IMG/VR virus record: IMGVR_UViG_3300013105_000002
Location: 64,001-128,000 of that record
DNA length: 64,000 nucleotides
Source of the DNA: a virus
Lineage: Duplodnaviria > Heunggongvirae > Uroviricota > Caudoviricetes
Strand: one strand, 5' to 3'
The notes beneath the pieces are model-generated. The model saw only the letters and a list, made by a program, of their open reading frames with translations. It did not search any database and was not told where the DNA came from. Below are positions 33,577 to 64,000 of the stretch, piece after piece. The translations under genes and the position numbers were made by a program. Each line of letters begins with the position of its first letter. Position 1 is the stretch's first letter.

Positions 33577-33838
33577 AGGAAAGGTAACTGCTGTGTCGTA
33601 CACAGAAAATGCTACAATTTCACACACGCTAACCTTCAGAAACGAGACTGTAAAGTCTGGTGCATTTCTGAAGGTTAGTGGCATATATGGGCTGGTGCAA
33701 TTTGAGTGCATCGTCCACAACCTCGACAATAATAAGGACTATCTGCTGGTCCACGTGCGGGGAGAGAAGAGAATGATTCCAATTGGAAGATTGCTTAGCG
33801 TCGTCCAGTTGAAGAGAAGCAGAAGGAAGACAAAATGA
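33533..33838 (+). CDS. Hypothetical protein
   Basis: 101-aa ORF filling the gap; start uncertain. Confidence 0.55.
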   Translation: MNTLTIWYNIGVTSEGKVTAVSYTENATISHTLTFRNETVKSGAFLKVSGIYGLVQFECIVHNLDNNKDYLLVHVRGEKRMIPIGRLLSVVQLKRSRRKTK

Positions 33839-41602: not shown

Positions 41603-41699
41603 CGCAAAGAGAGAAGGAAAGGTATTGGTCTGAGGCTTCGGCTATTCAACCTCTAACCACCCGGCAGACGCCGAAGCATTGCTAATGCGCTCTTTCAAT

Positions 41700-41771
41700 C
41701 GGAATGTACGCAAGAGGTATGCGGTTTGCTTTGGGAGCAAAAAGTCGGGGGTTCGAATCCCTCCATTCCGA
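41700..41771 (+). tRNA. tRNA-Pro(TGG)
   Basis: CGGAATG/CATTCCG, TTTGC-TT TGG GA-GCAAA. Confidence 0.92.
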
Positions 41772-41839
41772 CGTGAAGCACGGGTTCGAATCCCGGTGCC
41801 CGGTATATGGGTATAGTGTATAGGAGCACACGCCGTCAC
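41772..41839 (+). ncRNA. Circularly permuted tRNA-like element (T arm, closed acceptor stem, D arm; YrlA-like topology)
   Basis: CGGG-TTCGAAT-CCCG, then TGCCC-ggtatat-GGGTA, then TA-GTGT-atagga-GCAC. Confidence 0.55.
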
Positions 41840-41852
41840 TTAAAGGAGAATA

Positions 41853-42161
41853 ATGGCAGACAAGAACGATGCAGTCGCTAAGGTGGTTGCAGAGGATGGT
41901 TTGGAGACTTGGGTCGGACAGATCGAAGCGCTTGTTTCAGACATTGCTGAGTCAATTAAGGAAGAGGCCGACGAGAAGTACGCCGTTAGGGATGGCGAGG
42001 CTCTATTCCTGAATGTCAATGCAATTGCGATCTACGCACATGCTATGCATATGCACGCAATATTTCTCAATGAGTCAGGAAGGCCAGAACTAGCAGATTC
42101 AGTCACACAGCATGTGATTGCTTTGGCTACTCTGGTAGAAGAGGCTCAAAAGCGCTCTTGA
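41853..42161 (+). CDS. Hypothetical protein
   Basis: 102 aa, AAGGAG RBS. Confidence 0.7.
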   Translation: MADKNDAVAKVVAEDGLETWVGQIEALVSDIAESIKEEADEKYAVRDGEALFLNVNAIAIYAHAMHMHAIFLNESGRPELADSVTQHVIALATLVEEAQKRS

Positions 42162-55489: not shown

Positions 55490-55740
55490 TGGAGGTAGGG
55501 TTCAAAGTAGGTGACAGGGTTAAGGTGGTTCGAAACTGCAACCGCTATATGCCTCTACCGCCCGGTACTTTGGGTAAAGAAGGCAGGATCGTAGGCTCCT
55601 TGACACCCATGTCATGCCGTGTTAAGATCGCCTATGGTGAGGAAGTCTGGGTCGAGTTCAGAGAGATTGAACTTGTAAAGGCTTCTACAGAAAAGCCGGT
55701 AGCGAAAAGCGCACCGACTAAGAGGAAGAGGAAATCATGA
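55486..55740 (+). CDS. KOW/SH3-like small protein
   Basis: FKVGDRVKV...G.EG.IV motif. Confidence 0.55.
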   Translation: MMEVGFKVGDRVKVVRNCNRYMPLPPGTLGKEGRIVGSLTPMSCRVKIAYGEEVWVEFREIELVKASTEKPVAKSAPTKRKRKS

Positions 55741-56891
55741 CAAGCCTAGACGAGATTCTAGACACAGAACTGCTTGCAAGGCATATCGAAGACGGAAACG
55801 TCTCTGCCCGCACACATGAGAAGTTTCCTTGGGAAATCTTCAACTACACGCCAAAGGCTCAGTTCGCTCGTGCATGGGACGACGTAACCCTCGCATGTCG
55901 TGGACTTGTCTGGAACTACGAGACAAACACCGTTCTGGCTCGCCCCTTCCCCAAGTTCTTCAATTGGGACGAGGGTGTGATTCAGTACCCTCCCATCGGT
56001 CATACCCTGCGCATGGAGAAGATGGACGGATCGCTGGGTATTCTCGTAACCGATGACTACTGCAACGGCACTCCAACTAAGGAATGGATTTCCACTCGTG
56101 GGTCATTCCATTCAGAGCAGGCCGAGTGGGCAACCAAGTTCTACCTAGAGACAGTGGCAGAGTCTGCAAACAACCTGCCTCCCGAAATGGTGTTTTCGCC
56201 ACTACAGGGTAAGACCTACCTGTTCGAAATCATCTACCCGGAGAACAGAATTGTCGTTGACTACGGTGACTACAAGGGCCTAGTGCTGCTTGACGTTATC
56301 GACAACGAGACCGGCAATTCTGATGTTCAGGAGTTCGACAAGGCTGAGTGGCCTGACAAGGTTAAGCGAATCCTCGCCAACTTTGACTCAGGTGACACCG
56401 CTGCAATTCCCGATGGTGACGAGGGATTCGTGTACCTTTGGACGAGTCGTAAGGATAGGGACGGAAACGACCTTCCTGACTTCCGTACGAAGATGAAGTC
56501 TCCGGACTACATCGCGTTGCACCGATTGGTGACTGGACTTTCTGAAAAGACTGTCTGGGAGCACATGGTGAAGGGCGGTGCGCTTCAAGACCTGAAGCGT
56601 GAATTGCCTGAAGAGTTCCACGAGTTCATCGACAATGCTGGAAAGAAGTTCTTGAAGGAGGCTTCTCAGATTGTTTCGACGGTGTACTCTGCCATCGACA
56701 CTCTGGAAAGCACAGTTCTTCACGAGCGTCTGGACATGGTTGACAGAAAGACCGCAGCCGTGGCCATACAAAAGCATTTCCCTGCTCTGGCAAAGTACAT
56801 GTTCCTCGTACTTGACGGCAGGCCGATCCATCCTGTAGCGTTGCTCTCAGTCAAGCCTCGTAAGGAGGCACCGCTAGTAACGGAGGTGTAA
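55737..56891 (+). CDS. T4 Rnl1-like RNA ligase
   Basis: CRGL, RPFPKFFN, EKMDGSLG, STRGSF, FEII.PENRIVV, EGFV and KMKSPDY..LH motifs. Confidence 0.92.
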   Translation: MTSLDEILDTELLARHIEDGNVSARTHEKFPWEIFNYTPKAQFARAWDDVTLACRGLVWNYETNTVLARPFPKFFNWDEGVIQYPPIGHTLRMEKMDGSLGILVTDDYCNGTPTKEWISTRGSFHSEQAEWATKFYLETVAESANNLPPEMVFSPLQGKTYLFEIIYPENRIVVDYGDYKGLVLLDVIDNETGNSDVQEFDKAEWPDKVKRILANFDSGDTAAIPDGDEGFVYLWTSRKDRDGNDLPDFRTKMKSPDYIALHRLVTGLSEKTVWEHMVKGGALQDLKRELPEEFHEFIDNAGKKFLKEASQIVSTVYSAIDTLESTVLHERLDMVDRKTAAVAIQKHFPALAKYMFLVLDGRPIHPVALLSVKPRKEAPLVTEV

Positions 56892-56893
56892 CC

Positions 56894-57112
56894 ATGAGCC
56901 GACCTCAGCGCTCTCGCACACGTGTTCGACCCCTTCGGCTGTCACCAGCCGAAGCAAATCGTGGGCTCTGCCCATCCAACAAGCGTGCGTACCAGTCGTT
57001 GGAGTCGGCTCTTGGTGCACTTCAGAACATGAAGGGGGCAGGCAGGGATATTTCTGCCTCACGCGCATATCCCTGCCCGCTCTGCAACCACTACCACACG
57101 TCGAGCAAGTGA
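56894..57112 (+). CDS. Small zinc-binding hypothetical protein
   Basis: K.AY...A...RAYPCPLCNHYHT. Confidence 0.65.
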   Translation: MSRPQRSRTRVRPLRLSPAEANRGLCPSNKRAYQSLESALGALQNMKGAGRDISASRAYPCPLCNHYHTSSK

Positions 57113-57606
57113 TGGAGACCGCCATCATCGTGGAGCCTGCGGTTCCCTCAGAATTCGTTGTCCGCAACAATGCGTCCTCGCGTCAGAAGATGCTCCGTCT
57201 GCTTTTTGAGCGAGACGGCAGGAACTGTCGCTACTGCGATTGTGTTCTCACCCTGAAGAATGGTACCATCGAGCACCTTACCCCGCAGAGCCGAGGCGGT
57301 AGCAACAGGATCACCAACCTTGCAGTCTCGTGTGAGCGCTGCAACAGCGACAAGAGCAGCATGACGGACGAAGAGTACAAGGCTTACCTCCGTGGAGAAT
57401 ACGGAAAGCACTGCAAGTTTTGTGGTAAGGGCCTACGTACTCTGGACTATGACTTCTGCTCTGGTCACGAGAAGAGGGCGCGGTGGATCGCTAGACGAGA
57501 GCCCATGTTCTATGCTATGCTCATGTCCATCGAAGACCCGAGCATGCGCCGCATGATCCTCAATGATATGCCGCGTGGCCGAGTCCCAATCACAGACTAC
57601 ATTTAG
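57109..57606 (+). CDS. HNH endonuclease
   Basis: RDGRNCRYC...TIEHL.P.SRGG.N...NL..SC..CN..K motif. Confidence 0.9.
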   Translation: MMETAIIVEPAVPSEFVVRNNASSRQKMLRLLFERDGRNCRYCDCVLTLKNGTIEHLTPQSRGGSNRITNLAVSCERCNSDKSSMTDEEYKAYLRGEYGKHCKFCGKGLRTLDYDFCSGHEKRARWIARREPMFYAMLMSIEDPSMRRMILNDMPRGRVPITDYI

Positions 57607-57614
57607 GAGTAAAC

Positions 57615-58502
57615 ATGACCGTTTTCATCACCGTTGGTGCGCCTGCCAGTGGCAAGTCCACGTGGGCTATCGAGTACGCCAATGAGTTCGGAAACACGAT
57701 GATCACGTGCCGTGACGACATTCGCGCTACCTATGGCATCACCAAGTTCGGTGACAAGGAAACTGAGCAGTTCCTGACAGACGTTCAGCGTGCCCAGATG
57801 GAGGGTGCATTTGCTGCCGGAATGGACGTTATCGTTGCAGACACCAACATCAACAGGCGTTTCCGTAATCAGTTGGTCAAGTTCGCTCATGAGCACGCTC
57901 AGGACGTTGAACTGGTCACCTTCTACGAGCCTCTTGACGTTCTCATCATGAGGGATGCGGCGCGTGAGCGTACGGTCGGTGCTGATGTTATCACGAAGTT
58001 CTACAACGACCTCAACAGTCAGGAAATCATTGATATCCTGCTGCCGCACCCTCGTGCTCTGAAGTACAAGCACAACGAGGCAAGCCCCGAGGCAATTGTC
58101 GTTGACATTGACGGCACTGTTGCTGACCACAAGGGGGTTCGCTCTCCATACGACGAGTCGAAGGTCGGCCTTGACAACCCGAAGTACGATGTTATCAGCG
58201 TTGTCAAGGCTCTTGCCGAGCGTTTCGCCGTCATCTTTGTTTCGGGTCGCAAGGACTCGTGCGAGGCTGAGACGCGTGCGTGGATCGAGAAGCACTTCGA
58301 TTTCACGAATGGTGACTACTTCCTGCACATGAGGAAGCACGGTGACGATCGTCCTGATTACCGAATCAAGGCTGATCTGTATGACCAGAAGGTTATCCCC
58401 AACTGGAACATCAGAATGGTCTTTGACGACCGCGATCAGGTTGTTCGTCACGTTCGCAAGCGCGGTATCACCGTTGCTCAGGTTGCACCGGGCCACTTCT
58501 GA
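57615..58502 (+). CDS. Polynucleotide 5'-kinase / 3'-phosphatase (T4 Pnkp/PseT-like)
   Basis: GAPASGKST, RDDIR, VADTN, DIDGT, SGR and FDDRDQVV motifs. Confidence 0.93.
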   Translation: MTVFITVGAPASGKSTWAIEYANEFGNTMITCRDDIRATYGITKFGDKETEQFLTDVQRAQMEGAFAAGMDVIVADTNINRRFRNQLVKFAHEHAQDVELVTFYEPLDVLIMRDAARERTVGADVITKFYNDLNSQEIIDILLPHPRALKYKHNEASPEAIVVDIDGTVADHKGVRSPYDESKVGLDNPKYDVISVVKALAERFAVIFVSGRKDSCEAETRAWIEKHFDFTNGDYFLHMRKHGDDRPDYRIKADLYDQKVIPNWNIRMVFDDRDQVVRHVRKRGITVAQVAPGHF

Positions 58503-58669
58503 TGGAAAGTGAAAAGTATTGTTGGAGCATTGGGCCAATCCAGAGTGAATGGCGCTTTGATGATCCTGATGATGCTTACGAGGCTGCTGTCAGATGGAAA
58601 GCCAACTCATGGCCCAAGGATCGAGAAATCAAGATTTACCGGAAACTCATCGAGGAAGTGATCTTCTAA
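58502..58669 (+). CDS. Small hypothetical protein (absent from ORF track)
   Basis: 55 aa with TGATG coupling. Confidence 0.55.
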   Translation: MESEKYCWSIGPIQSEWRFDDPDDAYEAAVRWKANSWPKDREIKIYRKLIEEVIF

Positions 58670-58670
58670 G

Positions 58671-58859
58671 ATGGTTGTCAGATACAGCATTCGCAAGAAG
58701 CGCGGTAAATGGTCAATCAACATGATCGAGACCGGTCGTATGGTTCACGTGTCACACCTGAAAGACTGTGATACATGGGACGAGGCAGTCTTCGATGTGT
58801 TGTTCCTGATTAACGCCGACCGTTCTCTCAACAGACTGGTCAACAAGTCGTTCAACTAA
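58671..58859 (+). CDS. Hypothetical protein
   Basis: 62 aa. Confidence 0.55.
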   Translation: MVVRYSIRKKRGKWSINMIETGRMVHVSHLKDCDTWDEAVFDVLFLINADRSLNRLVNKSFN

Positions 58860-58865
58860 TCGTTG

Positions 58866-58893
58866 GGGCGGGTGGGCAAACGCCTGCCCGCCC
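58866..58893 (+). terminator. Terminator-like GC hairpin
   Basis: GGGCGGGTGGGC-AAAC-GCCTGCCCGCCC; no clear U tract. Confidence 0.6.
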
Positions 58894-58917
58894 TATCGGC
58901 ATTAACAAGGAGAAAAC

Positions 58918-59316
58918 ATGCCAGAATTGAAGTATTATGATCAGCCAGTAGTGGACTGCTCAGACTTCGACAGATTTGTCGAAGAGGTCTATGGGCGTAG
59001 GTATTCGACGGTCTCCGGTATGCGCGGTGACGACAGGCTCGGGCACTACACCTATCACTCTGTAGATGTAGAGCAATGGCTTATGGACAAGCAGTGGGAA
59101 GAGTCTGAAGAGGGCCAGCGTGAGTGGCAGAAAATGAAGGAGGAGTATCCTCAATACTACAGCGCTTCAGACGTTCCGGCCACCTTTGAGGAATGGTCGA
59201 AGTTGGAGGGCTATGACGCTCACAACAACTCACCCTCCATTGAAGAAATGGTCTACCACTTGCGCATGGACGGTTACGAGGTTCCTGCCGAGTTCACAGT
59301 ATTGGTGGACTGGTGA
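58918..59316 (+). CDS. Hypothetical protein
   Basis: 132 aa, AAGGAG RBS. Confidence 0.7.
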   Translation: MPELKYYDQPVVDCSDFDRFVEEVYGRRYSTVSGMRGDDRLGHYTYHSVDVEQWLMDKQWEESEEGQREWQKMKEEYPQYYSASDVPATFEEWSKLEGYDAHNNSPSIEEMVYHLRMDGYEVPAEFTVLVDW

Positions 59317-59540
59317 TGGAGTACGAATACGGTGTTCGATGGGTGCGCGACCAGTACGTGCACAGGGAGAATATGACACTGGAAGAGGCTTCTAAATTCG
59401 TCAGATGGATGACAGAGGGCGGAATCAAGGAGGGGGCCGTAGAGATTATTAGGCGACCAAGAGGGGACTGGGAGACCTATGATCCAGAGAGGCCAAAGAT
59501 GGTGGCGATCAAGAGGCCACCGGGTGTTATATGGAGTTGA
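59313..59540 (+). CDS. Hypothetical protein
   Basis: 75 aa. Confidence 0.55.
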   Translation: MMEYEYGVRWVRDQYVHRENMTLEEASKFVRWMTEGGIKEGAVEIIRRPRGDWETYDPERPKMVAIKRPPGVIWS

Positions 59541-59566
59541 CAGGCACTCAGCAGACCTGCTAGTGT
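59538..59566 (+). promoter_or_regulatory. Sigma70-type promoter
   Basis: TTGACA-N17-TAGTGT; a TATAAT also lies just downstream. Confidence 0.55.
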
Positions 59567-59603
59567 AGTTATAATGGAGTAGAGAACAAGAAAAGGTTGA
59601 AAT

Positions 59604-59936
59604 ATGTCTGTAGAAAATGAAGAACATCCTAGAGAACTTAGACTGGTAATCAAGGTTCGTAAGGATGCGAAGATGAGTCCGAAGAAGTTGGCTGCACAGG
59701 CTGTACATGCCGCTCTCCAACTGGTAGAGTCTCACCATGGCGGGCCGGTGATCGTCCTAGATGGCACCAAGCGTCAGATCGAAGAGTGTACAGTTGTGAT
59801 CATTGACGAGGGTAGAACCGAAGTCAAGCCAAATACGGTTACTGCTGGCGCTTATTGGGATGAGCGTGATGTTCCTCCTGAGAAGATCGAGCAGTGGAAG
59901 GCCGAAGAGGCACTTGACCGCAGCAAAACCTTCTGA
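59604..59936 (+). CDS. Peptidyl-tRNA hydrolase, Pth2 type
   Basis: LVI.VR.D.KMS.KKLAAQAVHAA and IIDEGRTEV.PNTVT motifs. Confidence 0.8.
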   Translation: MSVENEEHPRELRLVIKVRKDAKMSPKKLAAQAVHAALQLVESHHGGPVIVLDGTKRQIEECTVVIIDEGRTEVKPNTVTAGAYWDERDVPPEKIEQWKAEEALDRSKTF

Positions 59937-60828: not shown

Positions 60829-60900
60829 GTCTCTATAGTACAACGGATAGTGCATAAGATTCCTAATCTTAGAATGGGGGTTCGAATCCCTCTAGAGACA
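60829..60900 (+). tRNA. tRNA-Arg(CCT), canonical
   Basis: GTCTCTA/TAGAGAC, D loop CAACGGATA, TAAGA-TT CCT AA-TCTTA. Confidence 0.93.
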
Positions 60901-61065
60901 CGTTTGGTAAGCCGGGAACCCTGAGGCAAAGTAGTTACTAGCATGACGAAAGCCTCTTGACACCACTCATAGCCTGTTACGGCATTTATTAGAACCGAAG
61001 GGCATATGTGAGGAAACCCGCAGAGGTGTGTATATCGGAATGCTAGGGCTGCACACCTCGATCTT

Positions 61066-61140
61066 CCGCGATTAGTTTGAACTTGGATAAAACGCCGGTG
61101 GCAAAGCCGGAATTGAGTGGTTCGAATCCCTCATCGCGGG
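61066..61140 (+). pseudogene. Degenerate tRNA-like gene (Cys GCA-like loop)
   Basis: CCGCGAT/ATCGCGG, GTTT/AAAC D stem, CCGGT-GGCAAA-GCCGG (6- or 8-nt loop), bulged T stem. Confidence 0.6.
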
Positions 61141-61146
61141 CAACAC

Positions 61147-61175
61147 TTGACACCCAGAACTTGGCGTGTTATTCT
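61147..61175 (+). promoter_or_regulatory. Sigma70-type promoter
   Basis: TTGACA-N17-TATTCT, then AAGGAG RBS. Confidence 0.75.
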
Positions 61176-61207
61176 TAGTAGACCAACAACCACCAAGGAG
61201 ATTGATC

Positions 61208-63304
61208 ATGTCCAACACTGCATTTATGTTCCGACGCACCCGCAAGGTTCTCGTCCCGATGCGCCGCGCGGCTGGAAAGAACGCTGCGCTCGTTGCGTCG
61301 TTCGATGCAAACCTGCGCCGTCTGGGATTTGCGCTGGACGCTGACGCCGTGAAGGCCCTTCTTGACGTGCCCGCATCTGACTTCGGCGGTATCGCCAATG
61401 ACGTGATTGCCGAGGCAAAGCGTATCAAGGGTGTCAAGCGTTATTCCCCTATGTATCCCAACTTCCCCAAGCAGGTTATGGAGGCGTCTGACGCTGAACT
61501 GTACCTGAACGCCATCATGCACTACTACGGTGACATGGTTGGTCTTCGCATCCTGCCTGTCTACGAGAAGGCAGAGCGTCCCGAACTGGACTTCGATGAG
61601 TCTCGATTCAAGAAGGTCGGTGTGGCGTACCAGCAGGACTTCTTTGCCACGATCATGTCTGTGGTAAACCAGAAGGCTGGCTACGGTGAGCAGGAGCGAG
61701 AGGATATCTCTGAGTTCTGGGAGCACCTGATGCAGCAGCCTCAGGGCGAGTTCAATTTCGGCAACCGTGAGAACAAGGCGTGGTTTGCTGCAAAGGCTTA
61801 CCGTTACCTGAAGTTCTTTCCAATGGGCGAGGTATTCAAGTTCGACACAGCCACCGACGTTCTGCGTTTCGCTGTTGCCCTGTGTGATGGCGATGTGTCC
61901 CTTGCTGAGAAGACTCGGTTCAAGTCCTTCGCTCGTTCTGAGCGTCGTCTCATCCTTGGTCTTTTCAACCAGATCAATGGTCTGGATGAGGATTTTGCTC
62001 GTCGTCCTGAGACGTTCAAGCGTCTTGGCGAGCGTCTGCACCCTCGTGAGTACAGCGCTCAGTTCCCCATTGCCGCATCTGCCTTTGCAACGGTTCGTGA
62101 CAACAAGCGCAAGCCTGTCACGTTCAACAGCGCTGTCGAGAATGCTCTTTCAAGTGGTGCCACGTCTGCTGCTGTTTCTCTACTGAAGACTCGCCCCGGT
62201 GAGTTTGCGCGTCGTCTCGATGAGGTACTACGCTCTGCCAACAACATTACGCAGGCCCGTGCATTTGTCAAGGCGTTCGATGCTGTCGCTGCTCAGGTGT
62301 CCGCACCTGTGCTTCTTCAGGCTCGTGCTGCCCTTCAGGCTGACCGTGGTGGAAACCGAATCTTCTTCCCGAAGGGCAACGTTTCCAAGTTCAAGGCGAT
62401 CCCTGACACTCGTGGTGACATTGACCTTTCTGTCCGCAATGCGGCGGTGGAGGCGTGCAACAAGGGTCTCGTGGCTCGCTTCAGCGAGAAGGGTTCTCTG
62501 GGCAAGGTGTATGTTGACTCCGCTCTGGACGGCGTAACCGTTCCGCTGACGATTCGTGATGCCTCAAAGGGTCGCGTTCTTGGTCGTGGTTCTCGTATGC
62601 CGTTCAACGAAAAGACCAATGTTCTTCGATTCTTCATCTGGTGGAAGGACATTGACATTGGTGGCCGGAACGGTCGTGTAGACATTGACCTTTCTGCTGT
62701 GCTGCTGGATGACAACTTCAACACGGTGGAGGCTGTGGCCTACTACAACCTCCGTGGTCTGGGTGCTACGCACTCTGGTGATATTACGTCTGCTCCGCAC
62801 GGAGCAAGCGAGTTCATCGACATTGATCCTGCAAAGGTTCTAGAGCGCGGTGCGCGTTATGTCGCCATGACCGTTCACTCCTTCAGCCGTCAGAATCTTT
62901 CGGATATTCCTGAGGTGTTTGCTGGTTACATGGAGCGAAACGACCACGATTCGGGAGAGGTCTACGATCCTCGTACGGTCGAAAACCGTGTTGACCTGAC
63001 GACTCCTACGACCAACTCCGTTCCTTATATCTTCGATATGAAGACGGGTGAGGCCATCTGGATCGACATGGCGCTGCGCCTCGGTGGCTATGGCTACGGT
63101 GGTAACAACGCTGCCAGCACGTCGCTGACCACAGAAAACCTTGTGAGTGCGGTCGTTCGCAAGAACTACCCATCGCTCGGTGATCTATTTAGACTGCACG
63201 CAAAGGCTCGCGGTACGCTGGTTGACAGCCCCGCCGAGGCTGATGTAGTCTTCAACCTAGACAACGCATTCCGCACTGAAGAGGTGCTTGACAAGTACCT
63301 CTGA
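61208..63304 (+). CDS. TROVE/Ro-like alpha-helical repeat + TerD-domain protein
   Basis: 698 aa. YSPMYPNFP.QV, TATDVLR.A, LL..RPGEFARRLD helical region; C-terminal RFFIWW..RVDIDLS...HSGDITSAP.GASEFIDID TerD fold. Matches the described RING-TROVE-like-TerD architecture without the RING. Confidence 0.8.
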   Translation: MSNTAFMFRRTRKVLVPMRRAAGKNAALVASFDANLRRLGFALDADAVKALLDVPASDFGGIANDVIAEAKRIKGVKRYSPMYPNFPKQVMEASDAELYLNAIMHYYGDMVGLRILPVYEKAERPELDFDESRFKKVGVAYQQDFFATIMSVVNQKAGYGEQEREDISEFWEHLMQQPQGEFNFGNRENKAWFAAKAYRYLKFFPMGEVFKFDTATDVLRFAVALCDGDVSLAEKTRFKSFARSERRLILGLFNQINGLDEDFARRPETFKRLGERLHPREYSAQFPIAASAFATVRDNKRKPVTFNSAVENALSSGATSAAVSLLKTRPGEFARRLDEVLRSANNITQARAFVKAFDAVAAQVSAPVLLQARAALQADRGGNRIFFPKGNVSKFKAIPDTRGDIDLSVRNAAVEACNKGLVARFSEKGSLGKVYVDSALDGVTVPLTIRDASKGRVLGRGSRMPFNEKTNVLRFFIWWKDIDIGGRNGRVDIDLSAVLLDDNFNTVEAVAYYNLRGLGATHSGDITSAPHGASEFIDIDPAKVLERGARYVAMTVHSFSRQNLSDIPEVFAGYMERNDHDSGEVYDPRTVENRVDLTTPTTNSVPYIFDMKTGEAIWIDMALRLGGYGYGGNNAASTSLTTENLVSAVVRKNYPSLGDLFRLHAKARGTLVDSPAEADVVFNLDNAFRTEEVLDKYL

Positions 63305-63317
63305 GCGGGTGTAGAAT
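63288..63317 (+). promoter_or_regulatory. Sigma70-type promoter inside the 3' end of the TerD gene
   Basis: TTGACA-N18-TAGAAT; predicted start falls at the first Y-like repeat. Confidence 0.75.
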
Positions 63318-63321
63318 AAAC

Positions 63322-63396
63322 TTGCAGGCTACGGGCAGTGCTTCCTTCTAAACACTTCAATTGGATGAAATCACTAGCGCTCTCACTCTCCTGCAA
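63322..63396 (+). ncRNA. Y-RNA-like repeat 1
   Basis: TTGCAGG/CCTGCAA stem, CTAC/ACTCT internal loop, AGTGCT/AGCGCT stem, loop TCCTTCTAA...AAATC. Confidence 0.65.
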
Positions 63397-63404
63397 AAAC
63401 AAAC

Positions 63405-63472
63405 GGTGGCTAAGGAATGGGCTTCCTTCTAATTGCTTACATCAATCAAATCTAGCCTTTCTACTCTCCACC
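63405..63472 (+). ncRNA. Y-RNA-like repeat 2
   Basis: GGTGG/CCACC stem, CTAA/ACTCT internal loop, GGGCT/AGCCT stem, same TCCTTCTAA...AAATC loop. Confidence 0.65.
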
Positions 63473-63514
63473 ACAAACTCAACATCTGGCAAGGTGCAAA
63501 GATACACTTACCCG

Positions 63515-63588
63515 GCCCGTAAGGGAGATAAGTTCTGGGTCGCAGTCCCAGCGCCAGAAGTGAGTGGTTCGAATCCACCATCACGGGC
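63515..63588 (+). ncRNA. tRNA-like element without D arm
   Basis: GCCCGT/ACGGGC, CTGGG-TCGCAGT-CCCAG, GTGG-TTCGAAT-CCAC. Confidence 0.5.
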
Positions 63589-63607
63589 TTGACACAAGGA
63601 GTACAGT

Positions 63608-63730
63608 ATGGAAGAGTTACCTCCGTTAGACGAGGACTGGCAAGAAGAAATAACATTAGAACAGTCTATTGAGGACAAGGCAATTATGGATGGAATCCTT
63701 CGTCCAAATTGGAGAGACTATACGTCTTGA
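63608..63730 (+). CDS. Small acidic hypothetical protein (absent from ORF track)
   Basis: 40 aa, AAGGAG RBS. Confidence 0.45.
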   Translation: MEELPPLDEDWQEEITLEQSIEDKAIMDGILRPNWRDYTS

Positions 63731-63755
63731 CACCGGCCCTCTAGGGTGATAATCT
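63727..63755 (+). promoter_or_regulatory. tmRNA promoter
   Basis: TTGACA-N17-TAATCT; CCCTCTAG/CTAGGGG straddles the -10. Confidence 0.7.
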
Positions 63756-63765
63756 AGGGGTACAA

Positions 63766-64000
63766 GGGGCCGACAGGTTTCGACAGACATAACTAAACAT
63801 GGTTCTCAGTCATGATTGGACAGATCATTAAAAGGTCCAAAACAACAAATGCAATGGACAACATTGTTTCCGCATCGATGGAAAACATCGATGCCGAGTA
63901 CGAGGCGCTTGTCGCTGAGTTCTCGCTTGTCACTGTCTGAAAGATAAACAAGGATGGGGCACGATACCGCCTTATTAACCAAGAGTATCAAAACACAGTT
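63766..64000 (+). ncRNA. ssrA: tmRNA (3' end beyond the window)
   Basis: 5' GGGGCCGACAGGTTTCGAC signature; tag frame from AAAT-GCA at 63851 to TGA at 63940. Confidence 0.9.

Follow-up and report, generated by a model that had tools for sequence, protein, structure and literature searches.

Two tandem small RNA genes beside a helical-repeat and TerD protein gene of a phage, and their resemblance to Y RNAs

What do two short tandem repeats encode that lie directly behind a protein gene in the genome of a tailed phage? The repeats are located at 63322-63472 of a 64,000-nucleotide (nt) stretch of IMG/VR virus record IMGVR_UViG_3300013105_000002 (Caudoviricetes), here called the window, which corresponds to positions 64001-128000 of a complete phage genome of 131,350 base pairs (bp) with terminal repeats. 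A reading made from the letters of the window alone (referred to below as the sequence-only reading) had described them as two units with the architecture of Y RNAs, the small RNAs bound by the protein Ro60. Our analysis confirms the observation: each repeat is the gene of a small folded RNA, and the family of these RNAs is widespread. By analogy with Ro60 and its Y RNAs, these RNAs of about 70-75 nt are probably partners of the neighbouring protein of 698 amino acids (aa), which combines helical repeats with a TerD fold. The elements in question are as follows, in window coordinates.

63321-63397, plus strand: handle RNA 1 in its minimal form, with terminal stem P1, internal loop CUAC/ACUCU, second stem P2, UUCCUUCUAA and a variable apex of 25 nt (from folding and covariance models).
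63402-63475, plus strand: handle RNA 2 in its minimal form, with P1 GGUGG/CCACC, internal loop CUAA/ACUCU, P2, UUCCUUCUAA and a variable apex (from folding and covariance models).
61208-63304, plus strand: gene of the candidate partner protein, 698 aa, start codon ATG at 61208 and ribosome-binding site (RBS) AAGGAG at 61196 (from start-codon inspection).
63288-63317, plus strand: sigma-70-like promoter in the last codons of the protein gene, TTGACA, 18 nt, TAGAAT (11 of 12 consensus positions).

The sequence of the repeats is as the sequence-only reading gave it: two tandem units of 74-77 nt each, with stems that differ in sequence yet both pair. P1 of repeat 1 is formed by 63322-63328 with 63390-63396, and is followed by an internal loop in which CUAC (63329-63332) faces ACUCU (63385-63389). 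P2 pairs 63333-63341 with 63377-63384, one base being bulged, and UUCCUUCUAA stands at 63342-63351. Repeat 2 has its P1 in GGUGG (63405-63409) with CCACC (63468-63472), CUAA facing ACUCU (63463-63467) in the internal loop, P2 in 63414-63422 with 63455-63462, and UUCCUUCUAA at 63423-63432. Both units share P1, the internal loop CUAY/ACUCU, P2 and an invariant single-stranded UUCCUUCUA, and the 12-mer GCTTCCTTCTAA occurs at the two repeats only within the 64 kb. On the plus strand, the units fold with z = -2.6 and -2.9: the terminal stem leads through an internal loop into the second stem, which carries a large loop. The apical regions of the window copies span 21-25 nt. The units begin 17 nt past the stop codon of the protein gene (63304) and lie on its strand. 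The promoter at 63288-63317 agrees with the consensus at 11 of 12 positions and predicts a transcription start at ~63323-63325, on the first P1 bases of RNA 1, in agreement with the earlier proposal that transcripts from this promoter begin at repeat 1.

Does this motif belong to a family? Rfam 15 contains no family for it in the window or in seven bacterial loci, and full-text literature searches on the motif and on Y RNA with TerD returned nothing relevant. On the minus strand, Rfam reported sR30, an archaeal snoRNA, at E 0.053, which is a chance match. The exact pattern GGCTAMGG..GCTTCCTTCTAA had no match in IMG/VR because it is too specific to the window phage, while a looser 24-mer pattern was found at 57 loci, 18 of which had no model match and are probably chance matches. 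Two alignments were made with MAFFT: 25 short phage copies (alignment A3, the source of covariance model R1) and 33 bacterial units together with the two window units (alignment A5). Covariance model R2 was built from the 33 bacterial units alone and contains no phage or window sequence. Searched against both strands of the window at E <= 10, R2 returns the two repeats only, with 43.9 bits for RNA 1 (E 5e-10) and 39.4 bits for RNA 2 (E 9.5e-9). R1 scores them at 56.7 and 55 bits and finds just these two copies in the full 131-kb phage genome.

The plan of the family is P1, GGCUAU, P2, C-UUCCUUCUA, a variable region, UAG, P2', RCUYUCC and P1'. The part that we call the handle comprises a terminal stem closed by two G-C pairs and an asymmetric loop in which CUAY faces RCUYU; its upper part is an 8-bp stem of free sequence with the invariant single-stranded UUCCUUCUA facing UAG. 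In A3, 87.5% of the cells of the two helices are paired compared with ~46% when partners are slid, and double-change cells number 152 against 24-47, a count that 0 of 500 shuffles reached. In A5, pairing reaches 90.5% and falls to 41-51% on sliding, and double changes number 202 against 41-72. Covariation in both alignments supports P1 and P2, and with the conserved internal loop and the pyrimidine-rich single strand the architecture is Y-RNA-like, as had been proposed.

The same alignments bear on whether the repeats act as DNA, as protein-binding inverted repeats or as a plain terminator of the protein gene. They do stand directly after its stop codon and contain inverted repeats. However, the helix cells hold 51 G-U pairs against 9 A-C pairs, which identifies the folded molecule as the RNA of the protein gene's strand, and all matches lie on one strand. 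Two separate helices covary around conserved unpaired bases, and a promoter fires into the repeats. We found no terminator-like site in 62800-64000 and no U-run after either unit, and the GC-rich hairpin with U-run of an intrinsic terminator is absent from both window units. A DNA-level element or terminator, largely refuted by the strand asymmetry, is thus extremely improbable.

If the repeats encode RNAs, are these tied to the protein gene? The sequence-only reading had suggested a covariance-model search of phage and bacterial genomes for enrichment beside the gene. Our phage sample consisted of 23 IMG/VR contigs found via homologues of the protein with 25-43% identity. R1 detects 73 units in 22 of these 23 loci, all on the strand of the protein gene and arranged as 1-8 tandem copies adjoining it; tRNA genes are interspersed at phage loci, which reach 8 copies. 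Two jumbo phages have an extra unit beyond the stretch taken around the protein gene. Among cultured phages, Xanthomonas phage XacN1 carries three units upstream of ORF396 (37-45 bits), and Rhodococcus phage Weasels2 has three weaker matches in an unannotated gap downstream of gp266, an arrangement as in the window.

Units were also found on the protein gene's strand in 43 of 46 bacterial loci. They mostly end 6-100 nt before the start codon, and some lie directly after the stop codon. The carriers include Brevibacillus, Paenibacillus, Heyndrickxia, Tepidibacter, Planctomycetes, Armatimonadota, Saccharibacteria, Bacteroidota, Nitrospinaceae, Verrucomicrobia and relatives of Cyanobacteria. At four bacterial loci 7-14 nt separate the RNA from the start codon of the protein gene, and no Shine-Dalgarno sequence is visible there.

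A whole-genome search of 61 Brevibacillales genomes found the RNA in 27 and the protein in 27: both occur in 26 genomes, the RNA only in 1, the protein only in 1 and neither in 33 (Fisher p = 5.8e-15). In the one genome counted for the protein only, the gene is a pseudogene with five stops and the RNA is gone, which suggests joint decay of the two. The genome with the RNA only has kept a copy of 63 bits, and no protein gene was detected in it. These genomes of 3-7 Mb contain at most two RNA matches each, and every match with a listed gene adjoins the protein gene; a second copy, present in many Brevibacillus genomes, lies ~1.8 kb upstream of it. Because the RNA occurs essentially only beside homologues of the protein, the possibility that the motif is distributed independently of the gene fails.

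This close linkage could also be that of a cis-regulatory RNA of the TerD-protein gene, either an orphan riboswitch or an operator for autoregulation by the protein at the level of termination or translation, in which case the phage copies would be degenerate or decoys. The position of most bacterial copies 6-100 nt before the start codon is what a leader would show, P1 is often followed by a U-run, little room is left for an RBS, and several copies have no obvious Shine-Dalgarno sequence. A ligand pocket could be built from the conserved unpaired nucleotides, and TerD domains presumably bind small ligands (PMC7159879). The window copies, however, lie downstream of the stop codon and have a separate promoter, which places them outside a 5' untranslated region. 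Downstream copies also occur beyond the window, in Heyndrickxia, Paenibacillus, a Saccharibacteria genome and Entomomonas. A free-standing handle-RNA gene was found in Brevibacillus fortis (positions 84-149 of locus L109), with its own promoter (TTTACA, 17 nt, TATGGT) and with P1 followed by U7. This copy is 1.8 kb upstream of the TerD-protein gene, and an AhpC gene and an unknown gene lie between the two on the opposite strand. A leader would likewise not account for phage loci with up to 8 copies, some with tRNA-like inserts, or for the extra copies outside the protein-gene stretch in the two jumbo phages. The downstream position and own promoter of the window copies, the other downstream and free-standing copies and the multicopy phage loci favour free-standing RNA genes. 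Since a position against the start codon is common in bacteria, we retain a cis-regulatory or autoregulatory role as an unlikely rival or as an added function.

What would such free-standing RNAs be recognized by? The closing G-C pairs, the CUAY/RCUYU loop and UUCCUUCUA facing UAG are invariant across hosts whose local GC content ranges over 22-59%, which fits recognition by a protein surface better than pairing with variable targets. The internal loop CUAY/ACUCU may supply the nucleotides that contact the protein, as the sequence-only reading proposed; UUCCUUCUA is conserved at least as strongly as this loop.

Pairing with targets deserves consideration, since the invariant single-stranded CUUCCUUCUA is complementary to Shine-Dalgarno sequences of the GAAGGAAG type, and one complementary site stands just before the open reading frame (ORF) that starts at 33835. 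The repeats could accordingly be base-pairing small RNAs whose CU-rich, anti-Shine-Dalgarno-like loop UUCCUUCU sequesters purine-rich RBSs or other targets, with an incidental or chaperone-like link to the protein. Complementary sites in the window outside the motif, however, number 5 against 3.0 +/- 1.4 expected, which is no enrichment. No U or C of the stretch varies among hosts from several phyla, a constancy that wobble-tolerant pairing with Shine-Dalgarno sequences would not demand, and the strict one-to-one link with one protein gene would go unexplained. We consider a base-pairing function very unlikely, and return to the reading of the RNAs as partners of the neighbouring protein.

What kind of protein is this? 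Residue numbers given here refer to a 712-aa frame from GTG 61166. In an AlphaFold2 (AF2) model with a predicted local distance difference test score of 79.5, the N-terminal part consists of helical repeats (about 150-445) and the C-terminal part has a TerD fold (about 480-660). The latter matches TerD structure 3ibz with Z 18.0 and a root-mean-square deviation of 2.7 over 157 aligned residues, and TerD structures 2qng, 2qz7 and 2kxt with Z 14.7-17; Foldseek gives TerD at E 2.8e-6. By fold, the assignment of the C-terminal domain to TerD is solid, and this domain is not a vWA domain bearing a MIDAS site. Pfam TerD (PF02342) had no match in the genome at E <= 10 or in 17 relatives at E <= 1, and one distant homologue has a precomputed PF02342 annotation.

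By sequence, the protein matches the NCBIfam family NF041916 (MXAN_6230/SCO0854 RING family) with E 1e-117 and 394 bits, best over profile positions 385-757 of 842. The same family is matched by all 17 aligned relatives, with E down to 1e-136. As 394 bits is below the cut-off of 600 bits, we regard the protein as a homologue of NF041916 and not as an equivalog. A match to phrog_33734 was found at 1e-104. Sequence searches in Pfam gave no family for the window protein or 16 relatives and no RING or zinc-finger match, and nothing informative came from Pfam, PADLOC or a sequence search of the PDB. The ESM Atlas feature search returned unnamed clusters only. An AFDB cluster hit named 'ZorC EH domain-containing' (33% identity) was rejected: Pfam EH_Signature has no match at E <= 10 and there is no ZorC chain among the top 50 PDB fold matches. 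More than 2,400 homologues were found, the bacterial ones being annotated as 'TerD family protein' or 'cytoplasmic protein', and we found no literature on the function of the window-type protein or of the RING-bearing NF041916 form.

For the helical part, a search of 48,161 chains returned long matches to Ro60 chains only. Chain 9L5Y_B was aligned with Z 7.9 over 236 residues and 2NVO with Z 7.3 over 245, and Ro60 entries in the other structure comparison had Z 6.5-7.7 over 303-321 residues. Foldseek matches to the protein beyond the TerD domain are weak, and of these the Ro60 chains have the top or nearly top probabilities (0.84-0.96), at E values of 0.04-0.6 that are not significant.

How closely, then, does the locus resemble known Ro60 systems? 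The bacterial and phage Y RNAs YrlA and YrlB of Ro60 (Rsr) are likewise encoded on the strand of the protein gene and within a few kb of it, often as two or more RNAs per locus, in a neighbourhood of RNA-repair genes; in them, too, the paired 5' and 3' ends make a terminal stem, above which lie a conserved loop, a second stem and a top module (Chen et al. 2014, PMC4201824). The long members of our family resemble YrlA at the apex: in units of more than ~100 nt, a short stem shuts off a T arm, a closed acceptor-like hairpin and a D arm. Present at five loci, this module is a circularly permuted tRNA in YrlA order, the topology that defines YrlA (PMC4201824). The Rfam model of YrlA (RF02553) scores the long units at 30-43 bits (E 2.5e-6 to 0.012; gathering score 69), two of the matches spanning the full model. 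The base of that model, with its GNCGAA motif, has no counterpart in the handle. In place of the Ro60-binding motif GNCGAAN0-1G of the 5' strand (GGUCCGA in vertebrates; PMC4201824), the family has GGCUAU...UUCCUUCUA...UAG...CUYUCC. Unlike Ro60, the window protein carries TerD where Ro60 has vWA, and it is not recognised as a TROVE protein. Phages with long tRNA-like units lack a canonical TROVE gene, as does the window genome (searches of this genome and of five related ones). The window also contains, at 41772-41839 on the plus strand after tRNA-Pro, an earlier-noted permuted tRNA mimic that has no handle; Rfam gave no YrlA match in 41650-41950 at E <= 10.

A phage example of a Ro60 particle is known from Thermus phage phiLo, whose Ro60 was shown to bind two adjacent Y-like RNAs, Yrl1 and Yrl2 (PMC12135203; PDB 9L5Y). 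Tandem Y-like RNAs of the stem-bulge-stem type directly beside a phage protein gene are common to both phages, and among the long structural matches to the helical part of the window protein the phiLo Ro60 (9L5Y_B) ranks first. Unlike the window protein, phiLo Ro60 is a canonical protein of TROVE and vWA, and its RNAs, which lie upstream of the gene, have the CGAA motif; the window pair has no detectable TROVE sequence, another handle and RNAs located downstream. With eukaryotic Y RNAs the window RNAs share a terminal stem, a conserved loop or bulge that would by analogy bind the protein, and a pyrimidine-rich single strand, whereas the two have no sequence relationship and differ in conserved nucleotides, protein and transcription machinery. 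By analogy, the layout recalls Y RNAs next to Ro60 and suggests an RNA-protein particle that has yet to be studied. To our knowledge, Ro60 with its Y RNAs is the only well-studied particle of such type, and its role in bacteria is partly understood.

Several results weigh against reading the window RNAs as Y-RNA-like partners of this protein. On the RNA side, the window copies have no tRNA-like domain, RF02553 has no match to them (63200-64000, E <= 10), and the YrlA motif GNCGAA is absent, the copies reading GGCUAC and GGCUAA before P2. The sequence-only reading had already noted this difference from the classic Ro60 site, and we find no CGAA motif. No terminator follows the window copies, so that their 3' ends would have to come from processing, and the location of most bacterial RNAs 6-100 nt before a start codon, often with a U-run, suits a cis leader. 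On the protein side, Z scores below 8 are common for helical repeats, and the Ro60 values of 7-8 are within the range of chance for such folds. Pfam TROVE (PF05731) has no match in the whole genome at E <= 10, and hhalign gave a probability of 0.24% (E 0.25) when the N-terminal profile of the family was compared with 18 canonical TROVE proteins. TROVE was also absent from the 17 relatives (Pfam) and from five related phage genomes at E <= 0.01. With negative sequence tests and a weak fold match, the likeness to Ro60 is a structural lead and not a membership. The label TROVE-TerD, which the sequence-only reading had given to the protein, is therefore supported in its TerD half (fold Z 18) and not supported in its TROVE half.

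How could two RNAs of defined length arise without terminators? Three more features of the locus are relevant here.

61065-61143, plus strand: tRNA-like element with T arm GAGUGGUUCGAAUCCCUC, paralogous to the next one and just upstream of the promoter of the protein gene (from sequence and folding).
63513-63590, plus strand: degenerate tRNA-like element without D arm, with a 7-bp acceptor-like stem, an anticodon-like hairpin and T arm GUGG UUCGAAU CCAC (from sequence and folding).
61148-61177, plus strand: promoter-like site ahead of the protein gene, TTGACA, 17 nt, TATTCT (read from the sequence).

The two tRNA-like elements share GAGUGGUUCGAAUCC..CAUC.CGGGC; one precedes the protein gene, the other follows the handle RNAs, and a TTGACA promoter box stands directly after each. 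Neither is called by ARAGORN or Rfam. Both may be processing signals or decoys. We infer that the element at 63513-63590 belongs to the RNA/protein system, where it may mark the 3' end of the transcript with RNA 1 and RNA 2 for processing. The 63288 promoter would give a transcript with both units, a dimeric precursor, to be cut into RNAs of ~70-75 nt, possibly through recognition of this element by RNase P or RNase Z. The conserved handle of each RNA would bind the neighbouring protein, and the particle could serve in the surveillance or repair of RNA during infection, alongside the tRNAs, transfer-messenger RNA (tmRNA), RNA ligase, polynucleotide kinase-phosphatase (PNKP) and Pth2 of the phage. 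The variable apical region would serve as the payload site, with payloads in other genomes that include the YrlA-type permuted tRNA-like domain, and the window copies would represent the minimal, payload-free form.

The surroundings of the pair contain a set of RNA-repair and translation-rescue genes at 55737-59936 on the plus strand: an Rnl1-type RNA ligase (55737-56891), PNKP with kinase and HAD phosphatase (57615-58502), Pth2 (59604-59936) and also an HNH endonuclease. The region is rich in tRNA genes, with tRNA-Arg(CCU) at 60829. Behind the tRNA-like element, the TTGACA box at 63589 precedes a 40-codon ORF (63608-63730, plus strand) with a good AAGGAG site and no family match. A phage tmRNA begins at 63766 on the plus strand (RF00023, 30 bits, partial match), with its own promoter TTGACA..GATAAT at ~63728-63756; it is cut by the end of the window and its sequence carries on to ~2310 of locus L083. 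Further outside the window, at 150-345 of locus L085 (genome 128850-129045), an RNA starting with GGUGGCUGCUAUAGGG and containing the T arm CAGGUUCGAUUCCUG comes after a promoter TTGACA..GATACAAT. This RNA resembles a long or interrupted tRNA-like gene and is not matched by R1. Megablast of 61100-64000 against cultured phages gave no match.

What might the pair mean for phages and bacteria? A known plan, consisting of RNAs that adjoin their protein gene, a docking module and, in some genomes, payloads that mimic tRNA, reappears here with another handle and with a protein that is not called Ro60. The pair is widespread, with its more than 2,400 protein homologues, many bacterial phyla and cultured phages. 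It is quite possible, and we put it forward tentatively, that handle RNAs and helical/TerD proteins constitute a widespread, undescribed ribonucleoprotein of bacteria and large phages, either of an origin independent of Ro60/Y RNA or diverged from it past recognition, in which a constant handle docks interchangeable payloads (none, hairpins or tRNA mimics), and with which a phage guards or repairs its tRNAs and translation apparatus against RNA-targeting defences of the host. If the binding is true, many proteins now named 'TerD family' or 'hypothetical' would gain a function class and an RNA family missing from Rfam would be added. The pair would then also offer a tractable system for studying the reason for tRNA mimics on RNA-surveillance particles and the means by which phages protect translation.
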